A stretch of DNA of 31,365 nucleotides from an uncultured archaeon (GCA_964373795.1 CAYJVY010000003.1:100898-132262), one strand, 5' to 3'; shown: positions 3,805 to 26,822, counted from the first letter of the stretch. Numbers and translations: made by a program. The notes: generated from the letters alone by a model not told the origin.

Positions 3805-4305
3805 ATGTCTAGAAGAATTTCCTCTGCAACTAGAAAACTTCAAAGAAAGCAAAGACAACAAAGACTTGAAAAAGGAAGATTTCATCCAAATAATTTATTT
3901 AGCTCAAATTTTTTAAAGATTTTAAGAAAACTTTCCCCAGATCAAAGACTTGTTGCAAATAATTTAAGAAACTCTAATGAAGTGGAAAGAATTAAGGCTT
4001 TAAGACAATTAATTTCTTGGACTTCCGAAAGAGAAGTGCTTCCGGTAATTAAAGCATTATTTAGAGATCCTTCTCCAAAAGTCAGAGCAGATGTATTATT
4101 CAGATTATTTCATTTAGACAAAACTGGAAGCATTCCATTATTTAAAAAAGCTTTAAGGGATTCCTCTCCAAGTGTAAGATTAAATGCAGTTCACTGCTTG
4201 TCTTGGCTTAGAGATTCAAGGTTTCATGTATTTATTCGAGAAAAATTAGACGACCCAGATAAAAATGTAAGAGAAGCAGTTCGCCATGCATTGACTTACA
4301 CTTAG
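3805..4305 (+). CDS. HEAT (PBS-lyase-type) repeat protein with an Arg/Lys-rich N-terminal tail
   Basis: Three repeats of the D-P/S-S-P-x-V-R type (DPSPKVRADV, DSSPSVRLNAV, DPDKNVREAV). N-terminus is MSRRISSATRKLQRKQRQQRLEKGR. Confidence 0.6.
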   Translation: MSRRISSATRKLQRKQRQQRLEKGRFHPNNLFSSNFLKILRKLSPDQRLVANNLRNSNEVERIKALRQLISWTSEREVLPVIKALFRDPSPKVRADVLFRLFHLDKTGSIPLFKKALRDSSPSVRLNAVHCLSWLRDSRFHVFIREKLDDPDKNVREAVRHALTYT

Positions 4306-4328
4306 TTTCTAAAAATAGTTTCTTTCCT
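4303..4328. repeat. Orphan duplicate of the purA 3' end (left copy of a 26-bp direct repeat)
   Basis: TAGTTTCTAAAAATAGTTTCTTTCCT matches 4551-4576 at 25 of 26 positions. Its reverse complement encodes RKETIFRN-stop, the same residues as the purA C-terminus. Confidence 0.85.
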
Positions 4329-4338
4329 TTAAGCAAAG

Positions 4339-4347
4339 TTTAAATTA
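4339..4347 (+). promoter_or_regulatory. TATA box for the hicB-like gene
   Basis: TTTAAATTA ends about 25 nt upstream of ATG 4372, consistent with a leaderless archaeal transcript. Confidence 0.45.
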
Positions 4348-4371
4348 ACTAACGCCTATAATTTAATTAAT

Positions 4372-4560
4372 ATGAAAAAAAAAGTTTACAATTTTGCTGT
4401 ACTAATTGAACAGGATAAAGAAGGTTGGTTTGTGGCAAAAGTTCCTGATATTCAAGGATGCAATACTCAAGGAAAAACAATTGATGAAGTAATTGAAAGA
4501 ATTAAAGAAGCAATTCAAGTTTGCTTGGAAGCTGAAAAAATTGATTTTCCTAGTTTCTAA
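4372..4560 (+). CDS. hicB: HicB-like (UPF0150) antitoxin-domain protein with no HicA partner nearby
   Basis: 62 aa. [42 protein letters not shown] is the typical HicB N-terminal fold pattern. The last codons run into the purA 3' end. Confidence 0.65.
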
Positions 4561-5812
4561 AAATTGTTTCTTTCCTGTCCGGCCCAAAAGAAATAATTGT
4601 TATAGGTAAATTTAATTCTTTTTCAATAAATTTTACATATTTTTTTGCTTCAACTGGAAGATCATTAAATGAATGAATTTTTTCTGTATTAAATTCAAAT
4701 CCAGGCATTGAAATAAATTCTGGAATGCATTTTTCTTGAAGATCTGCTTCAGCAGGAAAATCCTTCAAGGTTTCTGCATTAACTTTATATGAAACAGCAA
4801 TTTTTAATTCCTTAAAACCTGAAAGAACATCCAATTTAGTTAAAGCAATTTCAGTCAAACCATTCAACCTGTTTGCAGTTCGAAGCAAACACAAGTCAAG
4901 CCATCCAATTCTTCTAGGTCTGCCAGTAGTAGTTCCATACTCCTTGCCGTTTTCTCGAATCTTGCTGCCAATAGAATCTTTTAATTCAGTTGGAAAAGGT
5001 CCAGAGCCAACTCTAGTAGTATAAGCCTTTACTACTCCAATTACTTTCTTCACGTGCTTGAAACCAACTCCGCTTCCAGTAAAAGCTCCTCCAATAGTTG
5101 GATTAGAAGAAGTAACAAAAGGATAGCTTCCAAAATCTAAATCCAAAAAAGTTCCTTGAGCTCCTTCAAATAAAACATTTTTTTCAGCTTCAAGAGCATT
5201 AAATAATTCCATTGAAACATCTTTCTTGAATTTAGAAAAAAGTTTTCCAAGAAAAGAATACTCTTCAACAACTTCGTTTACCGTGAAAGGCATTTTCTGA
5301 GAAAAAACCTTTTCCACAATTTGATTCTTTTGGAAAAAGAGTTTTTCCACTGCATTTCTAAGTTTTTCTTCTGAAATCAGTTCCTCGAAACGAATTCCTT
5401 GCTTGTTTGCTTTATCTGCATAACAAGGGCCAATGCCTCTCTTCGTTGTTCCAATAAGGTTTTGCCCTCTTTCGGTTTCAAATAATTCGTCAAACAATAC
5501 ATGCCATGGCGTTATAATATGCGTTCTTGGATCAATTACTAAATCTACTTTCCAATTAATTTGATCTAATTCTTTTTTCAAAACCCTTGGATCTAGGACA
5601 ACTCCTGCTCCAATTAAAACCTTTTTTCCTTGCACTACTCCTGAAGGCAGTAAATGAAACTTGAATTCTTTTCCTTGAACTACTACTGTGTGGCCTGCAT
5701 TATTGCCTCCTTGAAATCTTACAACTAATTCAGCTTTTTCAGCTAACAAGTCAGTTATCTTTCCTTTTCCTTCATCTCCAAATTGAGCTCCTAAAATAAT
5801 TGTTCCAGGCAT
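4550..5812 (-). CDS. purA: Adenylosuccinate synthetase (long, bacterial-length form, 420 aa)
   Basis: [12 protein letters not shown]-loop, [19 protein letters not shown]. Confidence 0.95.
4551..4576. repeat. Right copy of the 26-bp direct repeat (the genuine purA 3' end)
   Basis: See 4303-4328. This copy is contiguous with the purA reading frame. Confidence 0.85.
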
Positions 5813-5879
5813 GAATAATTCAATTAAAGAATGCTTTTTATTAATAATTGATCCAATTTTATTGGTTTGAGGAATTTAA

Positions 5880-24988: not shown

Positions 24989-25004
24989 ACAAGATTGTAA
25001 ATTT

Positions 25005-25478
25005 TTAGAAATTCATTATACCTAAGTCATCAATTTTTAAATCTCTATTTTCTACTTTATTTATTTTTTTAAGATAAGCCATCAAGTAATTCAAAACTTT
25101 TTTCTCAGTTTTCGCATTACAGTTTGAAAGATAAATTATAAATCCAATCATTTCATCGTCAAGCTCAATCTTTGAATTGCCTTTAAGCCAAGTAGGACAT
25201 TCAAGATTTGGAGAATTTAATCGTTTAAAACCAAATTTATTTGAATCCATGTAAATGTAAACATCGCTTTCAGCATTGCAAAGCCTAACACAAGGAAGTT
25301 CATTTTTAGGCCTGACAATAATTTGATGAACAGGATCATGAAGTTTATTCACTTCGAATTCCCGTTTTTTATTTAAATAGTCAGAAATATAGACATAAGC
25401 TATGAATACAAAAAAACCTAGTCCAAAAAACATTAAAAATAATCCAAATAGCCCTTCTATAATGCCCAAAGCAATCAC
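25005..25478 (-). CDS. Membrane-anchored hypothetical protein (157 aa)
   Basis: N-terminal TM IALGIIEGLFGLFLMFFGLGFFVFIAYVYI. GTG start in the track; the true start is uncertain. Confidence 0.4.
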   Translation of the reverse strand: MIALGIIEGLFGLFLMFFGLGFFVFIAYVYISDYLNKKREFEVNKLHDPVHQIIVRPKNELPCVRLCNAESDVYIYMDSNKFGFKRLNSPNLECPTWLKGNSKIELDDEMIGFIIYLSNCNAKTEKKVLNYLMAYLKKINKVENRDLKIDDLGIMNF

Positions 25479-25531
25479 TAAATAATAAATTGATCAAACA
25501 AATCTTAAACATTTTTACAAATTAATTAGTA

Positions 25532-26059
25532 ATGAAATCAATTCTGAAAAACCAAGAATTCCTTAAAGATTTTGAAAAACTAAAAAATGTTTCGCTAAAT
25601 CCTGAAAAACACTTTGCAAAAAATGCTTTAGAACATACTGAAATGGTTGCAAAAAGAGCCTTGGAATTAGCTGAACTGAATAACTTTTCTCAAGAAGAAA
25701 AAGAAATAATTCAAAACCTTGCTTTTGTGCATGACATTGGAAAAATTCTTGGAACAGCTAATCCAGAAAAATCAGTAGAACTTTTACAAAAATATGGCGA
25801 ATTCGATGAAGGTTTTGTAAGCCTTGTAAAATATCATGACATTAATCTTCCATGGTATAACTCATTTATGCGCGGCCAAGCGCCAACAGAAAAAACCTGG
25901 AAAAAAATGATTGAAAAAGTTGACATGCGAATAATGAGTGTGTTTATGATTGCAGACAGAATAGATTGTCCTGGAGGATGGCAAGCAAACAAACCCTTAA
26001 CATGGTTTTTAGAAGAAGCAAAAAAACGTGGATTAATAAAAGAAATCCAAACAGAATAA
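25532..26059 (+). CDS. HD-domain phosphohydrolase
   Basis: H...HD pattern: HTEMVAKRAL ... FVHDIGK. Confidence 0.7.
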   Translation: MKSILKNQEFLKDFEKLKNVSLNPEKHFAKNALEHTEMVAKRALELAELNNFSQEEKEIIQNLAFVHDIGKILGTANPEKSVELLQKYGEFDEGFVSLVKYHDINLPWYNSFMRGQAPTEKTWKKMIEKVDMRIMSVFMIADRIDCPGGWQANKPLTWFLEEAKKRGLIKEIQTE

Positions 26060-26149
26060 TAAATTTTAGAAATTCTTAGAAGCAAACAATTAAAGCTTTA
26101 TCAAAACTTTTTTATATTTGAATTGAATTAAATTTATTGGAGGATTGCA

Positions 26150-26368
26150 ATGTTGAAAAGGAATAGAATGAGAGGACGTATTGTTGATGCAGGAAAGAGA
26201 AACCCTGACAGAAAAGAAATAATTATTAGGGATTTAACCAGGAATGGCTTTTTAGTTAGAGTGAAAGGAAGGTTTAAGTTTACGGAGAAAGGCAGGCGAG
26301 CTGCAGAAGCACGAAGCCTGAACAATCCAAAACAACTTGTCAATTTTTTCCTTCATGGAACTCCTTAG
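26150..26368 (+). CDS. Small basic protein (72 aa), possibly a winged helix
   Basis: GGAGG lies 11 nt upstream. MLKRNRMRGRIVDAGKRNPDRKE, then DLTRNGFLVRVKGRFKFTEKG, which resembles a wing motif. Confidence 0.4.
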   Translation: MLKRNRMRGRIVDAGKRNPDRKEIIIRDLTRNGFLVRVKGRFKFTEKGRRAAEARSLNNPKQLVNFFLHGTP

Positions 26369-26417
26369 GGTTAAATGCAACACAAAAAAATAAAAACTCT
26401 GAAGCAGTAATTCTTTA

Positions 26418-26822
26418 ATGCGAGAACCAAGAATTGAAAGACGTGTTAGGCCAGAAGAACGAAGACCTTCAGTTGGAGTAGGGGAAATTTTTAGGCCAGG
26501 GAAAAGACTCGATCAAGTAATTTTCAATTCAGCTTCTCAAGGCCCTGTTGAAATAACAATTAGAAAGGGAAACAGGAAAAGAAAACTTGTTGAAATAATT
26601 TCTTTAACTCATGGAAGTGCAAGAGTGCATCAATTGCTTGCAGAACTGCTTTTTAATGATCGTGGCCAAATAGTAAATGCAAATGTTTTATCTCAAAGAA
26701 TGCAAAGACACCTTCGAGAACACAAACCTAAAGAATCTTGGCTTACGGAACGAGAAATAATTGATTTATTTAAAGAAGCTCTTTACAGGAAAGAAGAATT
26801 TAAAAAAATGCGAAGAAAATAA
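26418..26822 (+). CDS. Hypothetical protein (134 aa) with a basic N-terminal tail
   Basis: MREPRIERRVRPEERRPSVGVGE. A-rich TATA about 30 nt upstream. Confidence 0.45.
   Translation: MREPRIERRVRPEERRPSVGVGEIFRPGKRLDQVIFNSASQGPVEITIRKGNRKRKLVEIISLTHGSARVHQLLAELLFNDRGQIVNANVLSQRMQRHLREHKPKESWLTEREIIDLFKEALYRKEEFKKMRRK

Follow-up and report, generated by a model that had tools for sequence, protein, structure and literature searches.

Arginine-rich N-terminal tails mark a separate class of proteins in a DPANN archaeon

Arginine-rich motifs (ARMs) are found in viral RNA-binding proteins (lambda and P22 N, HIV Rev and Tat, HTLV Rex), and bromovirus and nodavirus coat proteins carry comparable arms at the N-terminus. 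Known ARMs are 10–20 aa long, often N-terminal and dominated by Arg, which cannot be replaced by Lys; they have no conserved sequence and are carried by unrelated domains. In viral and ribosomal proteins more generally, N-terminal arms are known to bind nucleic acid. Here we analyzed a stretch of 31,365 nucleotides (the window) from an AT-rich fragment (30% GC) of a sparsely sampled DPANN archaeon. The original prediction had described an Arg/Lys-rich leader on about 15 otherwise unrelated ORFs of the window, and had proposed a nucleic-acid-binding arm, a sorting or packaging signal, or a delivery signal toward a host cell as its function.

Proteins with arginine-rich N-termini

Every ORF listed in the original prediction was present at its coordinates. 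The tailed set comprises 14 ORFs of at least 72 aa; a further putative ORF, at 52 aa, lacks the length to be taken as verified and could have arisen by chance. Together, the tailed ORFs account for about one third of the genes in the fragment:

3805–4305, plus strand: HEAT-repeat protein, 166 aa, 13.9% Arg, pI 11.4; tail MSRRISSATRKLQRKQRQQR
7271–8251, plus strand: ORFan 7271, 326 aa, 8.0% Arg, pI 10.0; tail MRAQRRTPKKQR
10268–11272, minus strand: ORFan A, paralog of ORFan B, 334 aa, 11.4% Arg; tail MRQNRRRIVERTGSR
11325–11816, minus strand: ORFan B, 163 aa, 12.3% Arg, pI 10.1; tail MPGARRRVREVTRDR
11919–12314, minus strand: ORFan C, 131 aa, 7.6% Arg; tail MPERPRRPIVKSTSRP
12387–12989, minus strand: ORFan D, 200 aa, 9.5% Arg, started by the gene caller at ATG 12989; tail MREPVHPNRLLR
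15048–15788, plus strand: ORFan 15048, 246 aa, 11.4% Arg, pI 10.0; tail MREKTTRKIQRTPEKRRETTKR
15798–16199, plus strand: ORFan 15798, 133 aa, 7.5% Arg (body 8.3%); weakest tail MKPKEPFHGKLGKR, Lys-based
16209–16367, minus strand: putative 52-aa ORF; tail MRRLQRRSREKLQKR
16883–17869, plus strand: HTH and LAGLIDADG_3 protein, 328 aa, 11.3% Arg, pI 10.7; tail MHARTPLKTPRSWVKKIRK
17927–18514, plus strand: GNAT-like protein, 195 aa, 9.7% Arg, pI 11.0; tail MLSRRRAIKAKQ
18600–19268, plus strand: ORFan 18600 with a stretch resembling motif I (GCGKG), 222 aa, 10.4% Arg; tail MPAYGRKPASGKTRRVISRLR
19317–19685, plus strand: ORFan 19317, 122 aa, 12.3% Arg, pI 11.2; tail at residues 7–24, RNLRAKNKVKTRRKPVTR
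26150–26368, plus strand: ORFan 26150, 72 aa, 18.1% Arg, pI 11.9; tail MLKRNRMRGR
26418–26822, plus strand: ORFan 26418, 134 aa, 15.7% Arg, pI 11.0; tail MREPRIERRVRPEERR

The basic N-termini are as predicted: among the 14 ORFs of 72 aa or more, 13 carry three to seven Arg in residues 2–21, eight of these at least five, and the exception is 15798 with its Lys-based tail. In contrast, the same residues hold zero to two Arg in all 23 other proteins of the window and in all 7 proteins of a 6-kb flank (Fisher p = 2.7e-10 for tailed proteins against these 30). Conserved enzymes likewise lack basic N-termini within the sequence analyzed. The leader is not an add-on to otherwise ordinary proteins, for Arg is raised throughout. 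With the first 25 residues removed, body Arg is 5.7–14.9% in the tailed proteins and at most 5.4% in every other protein, and R/(R+K) ratios of 0.40–0.66 and 0.03–0.31, respectively, separate the two classes fully, also without the first 25 residues. As such, the tailed proteins are a sharply separate, highly non-random class, and the tail marks a class that uses Arg instead of Lys over its entire sequence. The pI is at least 9.6 in 11 of the 15 tailed proteins; ORFans A, C and D, and in part 15798, are rich in Glu too, which brings them close to overall neutrality.

The predicted division between lineage-specific proteins with the tail and conserved proteins without it is non-random, but only part of it holds. 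Seven window proteins without a family match are untailed and Arg-poor; six carry a TM segment or signal peptide and the seventh, 23608, is soluble. An 80-aa ORF in the flank resembles these seven. The split is therefore not simply one of lineage-specific against conserved proteins. Instead, most lineage-specific proteins belong to one of two sets that do not overlap: Arg-poor proteins carrying a signal peptide or TM segment, and Arg-tailed proteins lacking a hydrophobic segment; 23608 belongs to neither.

As a base rate, we took 204 ORFs at 16 low-GC PurB loci in DPANN relatives. Arg contents of at least 7.5% occur in 7.8% of these ORFs versus 37% here (p = 2e-5), contents of at least 10% in 2% versus 23% (p = 3e-5), and an N-terminal net charge of at least +5 in 3.9% versus 20% (p = 0.002). 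Among the 204 ORFs, Arg content was not coupled to N-terminal charge. The class is thus rare in low-GC DPANN relatives.

Coding status, codon usage and gene origin

Such N-termini could arise from wrong starts, ORFs that are not coding, ordinary genes read out of frame or reassigned AGA, and frame +2 of ordinary window genes would indeed give 9.7% Arg, while the 52-aa and 72-aa ORFs are short. This explanation is largely refuted already and hardly credible. At 30% GC, chance alone should not produce ORFs of 122–334 aa, and frame 0 has a normal coding composition, with 9.1% Glu, 3.8% Asp and 6.2% Gly; frame +2, in contrast, is rich in Ser, Asn and Phe with 2.4% Glu, and the other frames contain 4–11% stop codons. 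Most tailed ORFs have no alternative start for 20–70 codons, and an independent gene caller placed identical starts on 3805, 7271, the four ORFans at 10268–12989, 15048 and 26150. Shine-Dalgarno sequences lie upstream of 11325 (GAGGTGA), 11919 (AGGAGG) and 26150 (GGAGGA), and an AT box stands at about −25 to −30 of 3805, 15048, 16883, 17927 and 18600, many tailed genes looking leaderless with an AT box of their own. Correcting start codons, which might have removed the tails, left them in place. When PurB was compared with 60 homologs, seven of nine AGA and three of four AGG codons fell on columns with Arg in 59–60 of the 60 sequences. The genetic code is therefore standard, and reassignment of AGA/AGG was rejected.

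The tailed genes are indistinguishable from the other genes in GC3 and synonymous codon usage (permutation p = 0.21). The share of CGN plus AGG among Arg codons is at least as high in the tail as in the protein body, and this codon mix speaks against a nucleotide-level purine-run signal. Considering the native codon usage together with AT pressure, which favors AGA to AAA and thereby Arg to Lys, Arg itself and not mere charge is kept by selection at the protein level.

It is very unlikely that the tail acts as a translational gate, in which the initial Arg codons would restrict efficient translation to times of abundant charged tRNA-Arg, as may occur when a host feeds the symbiont. The Arg codons do crowd into the first 21 codons, DPANN archaea commonly lack amino-acid synthesis, and the apparently leaderless genes with their own AT boxes would suit such control. 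However, AGA is the most used Arg codon genome-wide and not a rare one, the tail codons are not biased to any one tRNA, and as Arg is high in the rest of the protein too, gating at its start would add nothing.

The tails could also reflect origin and not role. In that case there would be no shared function, and the genes would derive from a pool not yet sampled, such as a virus, a plasmid or further mobile DNA belonging to this lineage, with Arg-rich and basic proteins; they would be long-resident and fully codon-adapted, and basic N-termini would be typical of small DNA-associated proteins. Consistent with this, most tailed proteins have no homologs, as searches of 5.8 billion and 1.84 billion proteins returned only the queries. 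For 15048, its own sequence was the sole match in 5.8 billion proteins, with no Pfam, PHROG or NCBIfam family; a profile of A and B retrieved only A and B themselves from 1.84 billion representatives, and no close homolog of 16883 was found in the homolog searches. The members at 10268–12989 and 15048–19685 form two same-strand arrays, the class contains a LAGLIDADG-type gene, and close by are toxin-antitoxin cassettes with direct repeats on either side. A different assembly from this sample has a nonsense variant in 26418 (G26592T, E59*), a hint of weak constraint, and the GC-sensitive residue pairs V/I, D/N and H/Y of the tailed proteins are mildly shifted toward the GC-rich side. Ala and Gly are not raised, however, and therefore there is no general signature of GC-rich ancestry. 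The scanned window proteins include no integrase-type family, capsid or other hallmark gene, and an integrated virus or mobile element was rejected on the lack of PHROG matches, of IMG/VR relatives for the two members tried, of a tRNA and of att-like repeats flanking the arrays, and on the native codons. Moreover, two members sit inside housekeeping runs: the start of 7271 overlaps the purB stop (ATGA) with panC 14 nt downstream, and the HEAT gene starts 19 nt after panB. Since origin alone also leaves the N-terminal position of the Arg peak unexplained, we regard it as a possible but rather unlikely account.

Properties of the tail

In the tailed proteins, positive charge peaks in the N-terminal 20-residue segment (median rank 0.045 among all such segments of the protein, KS against uniform p = 6e-9). 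Their C-terminal segment is unremarkable (median rank 0.38, p = 0.34), and the other proteins stand out at neither end. Residues 2–21 of the tails average 24% Arg, 10% Lys and 7% Pro. A motif search, which the original prediction had called for, revealed a common composition without a shared sequence motif; any string of three or four residues is common to at most three tails, and there is no conserved cleavage-like site. Acidic residues are present in 10 of the 15 tails, several of which hold two to four. Compared with shuffled controls, the helical hydrophobic moment exceeds z = 2 in 2 of the 15 tails and comes near 1.9 in a third (mean z 0.55). The predicted lack of a hydrophobic segment after the tail was borne out in all 15 tailed ORFs, with a maximum Kyte-Doolittle 19-mer of 0.25–1.07 versus 2.2–2.9 in window proteins with a genuine TM segment or signal peptide.

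These properties led us to reject a Tat signal peptide, as the 12–20-residue hydrophobic core is missing, and a Sec signal peptide, as there is no h-region and the signal-bearing ORFs 13300, 20301, 21987 and 24410 all belong to the Arg-poor class. A mitochondrial-type presequence was rejected because amphipathicity is not general and most tails contain acidic residues.

Where the tailed proteins have recognizable domains, the tail lies outside them. In the HEAT protein, Pfam HEAT_2 spans residues 80–163, and an AF2 single-sequence model (mean pLDDT 67) places a separate helix at residues 7–23 and a low-confidence linker at 21–31. In 16883, the tail precedes both HTH (81–118) and LAGLIDADG_3 (239–317), and in the GNAT-like 17927 the Acetyltransf_1 match is limited to residues 136–182. 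No family was found for 7271 at E<0.01, a faint Methyltransf_11 match (E=0.11) being below the cut-off. The label of putative methyltransferase for 18600 has the GCGKG string as its sole support; this protein gave no Pfam, other family or PDB match, and its AF2 model is unreliable (pLDDT 38). The tandem ORFans A–D have in common an N-terminal module of about 40 aa (a basic stretch, then E-[IV]-x-E-R-H-x-x-R-F-V-V-x-P) and diverge beyond it, with statistical support for A/B only (BLASTP E=2.6e-8) and a loose alignment of C to the module of A and B. Identity between A and B is 50% over the first 36 residues versus about 21% further on, so that the tail is the best-conserved segment; the ORFan B protein was identical in four sequencing runs.

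The strict N-terminal polarity, the unrelated folds behind the tails and the retention of Arg over Lys would also suit a trafficking signal, by which the N-terminal Arg cluster marks lineage-specific proteins for a route needing no hydrophobic segment, either packaging into vesicles or particles, or Arg-dependent entry into the host cell across the symbiont-host contact, comparable to that of cell-penetrating peptides. The two mainly exclusive sets of lineage-specific proteins fit this reading apart from 23608, and the mix of HEAT repeats, GNAT, methyltransferase-like and nuclease-like domains resembles the similar mix in bacterial effector repertoires. Against it stand the absence of a common motif and of a cleavage-like site, the scarcity of amphipathic helices, the acidic residues in many tails, and an Arg richness that extends through the whole protein. 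Furthermore, literature searches turned up no such signal in archaea, and the window encodes no secretion machinery. On balance, trafficking is unlikely. Its most specific form, quite unlikely in our view, would make the Arg-rich N-terminus a previously unknown sorting signal of a DPANN symbiont that directs proteins to the host or to vesicles or particles by an Arg-dependent route without a hydrophobic step, with whole-protein Arg as an adaptation to the destination. If true, the lineage-specific proteins would divide mainly into Sec-exported surface proteins and Arg-tagged proteins taking that route.

A candidate nucleic-acid-binding arm and known systems

We tentatively favor the reading of the tails as ARM-like arms that bind nucleic acid or another polyanion, on a lineage-specific class of basic proteins. 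These soluble, mostly very basic proteins have Arg where the rest of the proteome has Lys, concentrated in a motif-free N-terminal arm of 12–25 residues, with Arg itself maintained by selection on the protein against AT pressure. The arm may be a flexible or helical segment binding RNA, DNA or other polyanions, and would tether the following domain (HEAT, HTH-LAGLIDADG, GNAT or unknown folds) to its ligand, which we infer to be nucleic acid. Among the three candidate functions of the original prediction, the nucleic-acid-binding arm seems to fit best, judged from sequence. The tails have the composition of ARMs (a 10–20-residue, Arg-dominated segment without conserved sequence), most members are strongly basic, and one combines an HTH DNA-binding domain with a LAGLIDADG nuclease-type domain. 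The conservation of the A/B tail and the restriction of the enrichment to the N-terminus point the same way.

Other observations weigh against such an arm. Fourteen new nucleic-acid binders would be many for 31 kb of a small genome, four members are near neutral overall and one has a nonsense polymorphism, and N-terminal polarity with ordinary C-termini is also expected of a targeting signal.

Among known systems, Tat and Sec signal peptides are likewise N-terminal with Arg pairs near the start, but the tails have no hydrophobic core and the true signal-peptide proteins of the window are Arg-poor. Eukaryotic nuclear and nucleolar localization signals and mitochondrial presequences are also N-terminal basic segments on a subset of the proteome with mature parts that are often basic, whereas here the organism is a prokaryote without a known target compartment and the tails are neither generally amphipathic nor free of acidic residues. 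Type IV secretion signals and Arg-rich cell-penetrating peptides are similarly unstructured, motif-free and Arg-dependent, on effector-like enzymes and repeat proteins; type IV signals, however, are C-terminal, the window has no type IV-like system, and to our knowledge no such Arg translocation system exists in archaea. Polymorphic toxin and effector families combine a conserved N-terminal module with variable C-termini, as ORFans A–D do, although only the A/B relationship is significant and family searches recognized no toxin or immunity domain. In the case of viral ARMs, the difference is that about 14 chromosomal proteins of one archaeon carry the tail, on Arg-rich bodies, with two to four acidic residues in several tails and without viral context in the PHROG and IMG/VR searches. 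In other respects the tails resemble viral ARMs, being short, N-terminal, Arg-dominated, without conserved sequence and attached to unrelated domains, and the RAQRR string of the bromovirus coat ARM is also present in 7271.

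N-terminal tails and arginine content of the tailed ORFs

The basic N-terminal tail of the original prediction proved to be a clear feature of the listed ORFs (named by start coordinate). In 13 of the 14 tailed ORFs of at least 72 aa, residues 2–21 contain 3–7 Arg, while every other protein has at most 2 (Fisher p = 2.7e-10), both in the window (37 genes called) and in 6 kb more of left flank supplied by the assembled contig L002 (7 genes). The tail of ORF 15798 is weaker and Lys-based, and a putative 52-aa ORF (16209–16367), too short for a verified gene, carries a tail of the same type. 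The predicted lack of a hydrophobic segment was also confirmed, as the maximal 19-residue Kyte-Doolittle score of the tailed ORFs was at most 1.07, compared with 2.2–2.9 for genuine signal-peptide or transmembrane (TM) proteins of the window. The net charge of the N-terminal 20 residues had a median rank of 0.045 among all 20-residue segments of the same protein (KS against uniform, p = 6e-9), and that of the C-terminal segment was ordinary (median rank 0.38, p = 0.34).

The tails survived scrutiny of their start codons. Most of the ORFs have no alternative start across 20–70 codons. Strong Shine-Dalgarno sequences precede three of them, and an AT box, the pattern expected of leaderless archaeal transcripts, lies at −25 to −30 in several. 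Identical starts were returned by an independent gene caller for 3805, 7271, 15048, 26150 and the following four tandem ORFans.

10268–11272 (−), tailed ORFan A
11325–11816 (−), tailed ORFan B
11919–12314 (−), tailed ORFan C
12387–12989 (−), tailed ORFan D

A start-codon artefact was thus rejected on the basis of context and the independent caller, and we find an artefact as the explanation of the class hardly credible.

While the tail does mark these ORFs, the original prediction missed that the class differs over the entire protein length. Arg accounts for 7.5–18% of the whole tailed proteins and at most 5.2% of all others. When the first 25 residues were removed, the values were 5.7–14.9% (median 9.7%) and at most 5.4% (median 2.8%), respectively, with disjoint ranges (Mann-Whitney p = 5e-7). 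The R/(R+K) ratios were 0.40–0.66 in the tailed set and 0.03–0.31 in the others. The pI is at least 9.6 in 11 of the 15 tailed proteins; ORFans A–D are also Glu-rich, and three of these four are near neutral. One third of the genes can be sorted out by a rule that combines an N-terminal Arg cluster, the absence of a hydrophobic segment and an R/(R+K) above 0.4 for the whole protein.

The proposed split between lineage-specific proteins with a tail and conserved enzymes without it held for the enzymes, which lack the tail, but lineage-specific proteins are not always tailed. Seven window proteins without a family match are Arg-poor and untailed, as is an unannotated 80-aa ORF in the flank.

13300, 19702, 20301, 21987, 24410 and 25005, untailed ORFans with a signal peptide or TM segment
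23608, soluble untailed Arg-poor ORFan

Since six of them carry signal peptides or TM segments, hydrophobic and Arg-rich N-termini are mutually exclusive among the lineage-specific proteins, nearly all of which bear one or the other. The run of Arg-poor ORFans at 13300–15000 (−) and 19702–25478, which match no family and carry a signal peptide or TM segment, probably encodes symbiont surface proteins; ORF 13300 contains a HEATH (HExxH) metalloprotease-like motif. A tail acting as a trafficking or host-delivery signal would suit the N-terminal polarity and the almost exclusive division of the ORFans into two sets, yet no motif common to the tails was found, nor any precedent or, in the window, any machinery, and such a role seems unlikely.

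Source genome, base rate in relatives and codon usage

The GC content of the window is ~30%. An archaeal HTH_10 regulator and the PurB identities, 81% to a partial protein of a 'Candidatus Diapherotrites archaeon' (MDO8627041.1) and ~54% to Woesearchaeota/Nanoarchaeota proteins, point to a sparsely sampled DPANN archaeon as the source. Near-invariant copies were present in Logan assemblies from four runs, and a genome scan with PurA returned solely a Phycisphaeraceae contig. All evidence comes from 37 kb of one genome. PurB is 463 aa long in the window; most Woesearchaeota homologs have ~552 aa, and in some of them an additional HTH domain is present.

For comparison, we used 80 PurB loci from metagenomes, of which the 16 with GC of at most 0.38 gave 204 ORFs, with one simple ORF caller for loci and window alike.

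Table. Arg content and N-terminal charge in low-GC relatives (204 ORFs) and in the window.
Property; relatives; window; p
Arg at least 10%; 2%; 23%; 3e-5
Arg at least 7.5%; 7.8%; 37%; 2e-5
N-terminal net charge at least +5; 3.9%; 20%; 0.002
Spearman, Arg content against N-terminal charge; −0.04; +0.72; 1e-6 (window)

Basic N-termini, which had been predicted to set these proteins apart, are not a trivial property of genome or lineage, as their rates in the window were far above those in the relatives. Coupling was faint in the relatives, where at least 3 N-terminal Arg occurred in 15% of ORFs with a body (residue 26 to the end) R/(R+K) of at least 0.4 and in 4% of the rest (p = 0.009); the corresponding counts for the window were 10 of 11 and 2 of 24.

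Reassignment of AGA was rejected, since AGA and AGG in purB sit on invariant Arg columns and the code is therefore standard. GC3 was 0.17 in the tailed genes and 0.19 in the others, and synonymous usage was alike in both classes, no different from random gene partitions (gene-label permutation p = 0.21). The class shows an Arg excess plus small increases in His, Pro and Gln; Ala and Gly were not raised, so a general signature of GC-rich ancestry is missing, and, with GC3 and synonymous usage native, recent transfer from a GC-rich donor was rejected. An out-of-frame or overprinted origin was rejected as well, because frame +2 of ordinary genes contains 9.7% Arg but differs from the class in its remaining composition, being Ser/Asn/Phe-rich and Glu/Asp-poor with 10% stop codons. 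A nucleotide-level purine-run signal was unsupported, as CGN and AGG use in the tails was at least that in the bodies. The CGN share of Arg codons was 15% in tails and 8% in bodies (p = 0.06), so selection acts on amino acids and not on a purine run. Considering that AT-biased mutation drives AGA to AAA, we infer that 10–18% Arg in such native-looking genes must be kept by selection for Arg itself, and Arg held at this level at 30% GC would be a useful marker of functionally constrained Arg. A translational gate set by Arg supply, as another reading of the N-terminal Arg cluster, is quite improbable.

The AGA share of Arg codons is 78% in the tailed genes and 64% in the others. Despite the share of 78%, AGA is avoided at codon 2: where Arg stands there (7271, 10268, 12387, 15048, 16209, 26418), the codon is CGT, CGA or AGG in six of six cases and never AGA, which may be an initiation-context constraint.

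Homologs and neighboring elements

Within the tailed set, only ORFans A and B are related (E = 2.6e-8), with 50% identity over residues 1–36, to which the RRR tail belongs, and ~21% beyond. The tandem ORFans have in common an N-terminal module of ~40 aa, in which a basic stretch precedes E-[IV]-x-E-R-H-x-x-R-F-V-V-x-P, and diverge completely after it; C and D align only loosely to the module, the statistical support being that of the A/B pair alone. Pfam identified HEAT repeats in 3805, HTH and LAGLIDADG_3 in 16883, and the C-terminal half of GNAT in 17927, and the domain bounds exclude the tail in every case. The remaining members could be assigned to no family of Pfam, NCBIfam, PHROG or PADLOC: the ORFans queried had no hits in PHROGs and NCBIfam, and the PADLOC matches were at the domain level only (HEAT, HTH). 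A PDB sequence search with three members found no significant relative. Searches of 5.8 billion proteins with 15048 and 16883 returned the query alone, and a profile built from A and B found nothing but these two among 1.84 billion representatives. In the loci of relatives, the gene after purB in L008 was rejected as a 7271 ortholog, being not homologous, and the LAGLIDADG gene of L010 is a distant relative of 16883. An unsampled mobile gene pool as the origin of the class, with no common function, appears doubtful: hallmark genes were lacking, as were viral relatives of the two members tried, codon usage is native, and two members sit within housekeeping gene runs.

An amphipathic helix was rejected as a general property of the tails. 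AlphaFold2 without an alignment was uninformative for 18600 (pLDDT 38) and mediocre for the HEAT protein 3805, with a detached N-terminal helix predicted at modest confidence. A different assembly of the sample has a G-to-T variant at 26592 (position 857 of contig L004) that changes Glu59 of ORF 26418–26822 to a stop. This variant, among only four over ~13.5 kb of overlapping contigs, reflects either relaxed constraint on this tailed ORF or an assembly error.

Several further elements lie in the window.

1–24 and 857–880, perfect 24-bp direct repeat AAACCAATAAATTAAAGCTTTTTC flanking a HepT-like/Polbeta-nucleotidyltransferase toxin-antitoxin pair (46–844)
26079–26102, 79% copy of this repeat, upstream of ORF 26150
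4303–4328 and 4551–4576, 26-bp direct repeat (96% identical) flanking a HicB-like antitoxin ORF (4372–4560) wedged between the HEAT gene and the purA end
16511–16654 (−) and 28219–28362 (−), paralogous 47-aa treble-clef zinc-finger genes (Pfam zf_Tbcl_2, E ~1e-21), 81% identical over 118 nt
901–3785 and 8266–9921, bacterial-type pantothenate/CoA set of this DPANN archaeon (CoaBC, ApbA/PanE, PanB, PanC, Fumble-type pantothenate kinase), which forms a cluster with purA and purB

The 24-bp repeat may mark the boundary of a cassette or be a promoter/terminator element in shared use, and the HicB-like ORF looks like a small inserted cassette. The zinc-finger proteins are small and fairly Arg-rich, but their family is widespread.

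Possible function and known Arg-rich arms

Taken all together, the best-supported reading, though still tentative, is that the tails are N-terminal arms like the arginine-rich motif (ARM) of nucleic-acid-binding proteins, through which a class of lineage-specific basic proteins would bind nucleic acid or another polyanion. We favor it because Arg is required over Lys, the tails have no motif, the pI is high, one member has HTH and LAGLIDADG domains, and the tail is conserved in A and B. Nucleic-acid binding would make the class a large and rapidly evolving toolkit for regulation or RNA handling; as a delivery tag, the tail would be the first description of an effector signal in archaea. DPANN archaea are host-dependent and, to our knowledge, almost nothing is known of the proteins that mediate this dependence, most lineage-specific genes being unannotated. 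The sequence rule offers a specific and testable starting point for this "dark matter". In the literature we found no report of a prokaryotic genome where Arg-rich arms mark a discrete, whole-protein compositional ORFan class. Single viral, ribosomal and nuclear proteins with such arms are well known, and the layout of ORFans A–D, with a constant N-terminal module and a divergent remainder, recalls that of polymorphic effector families.
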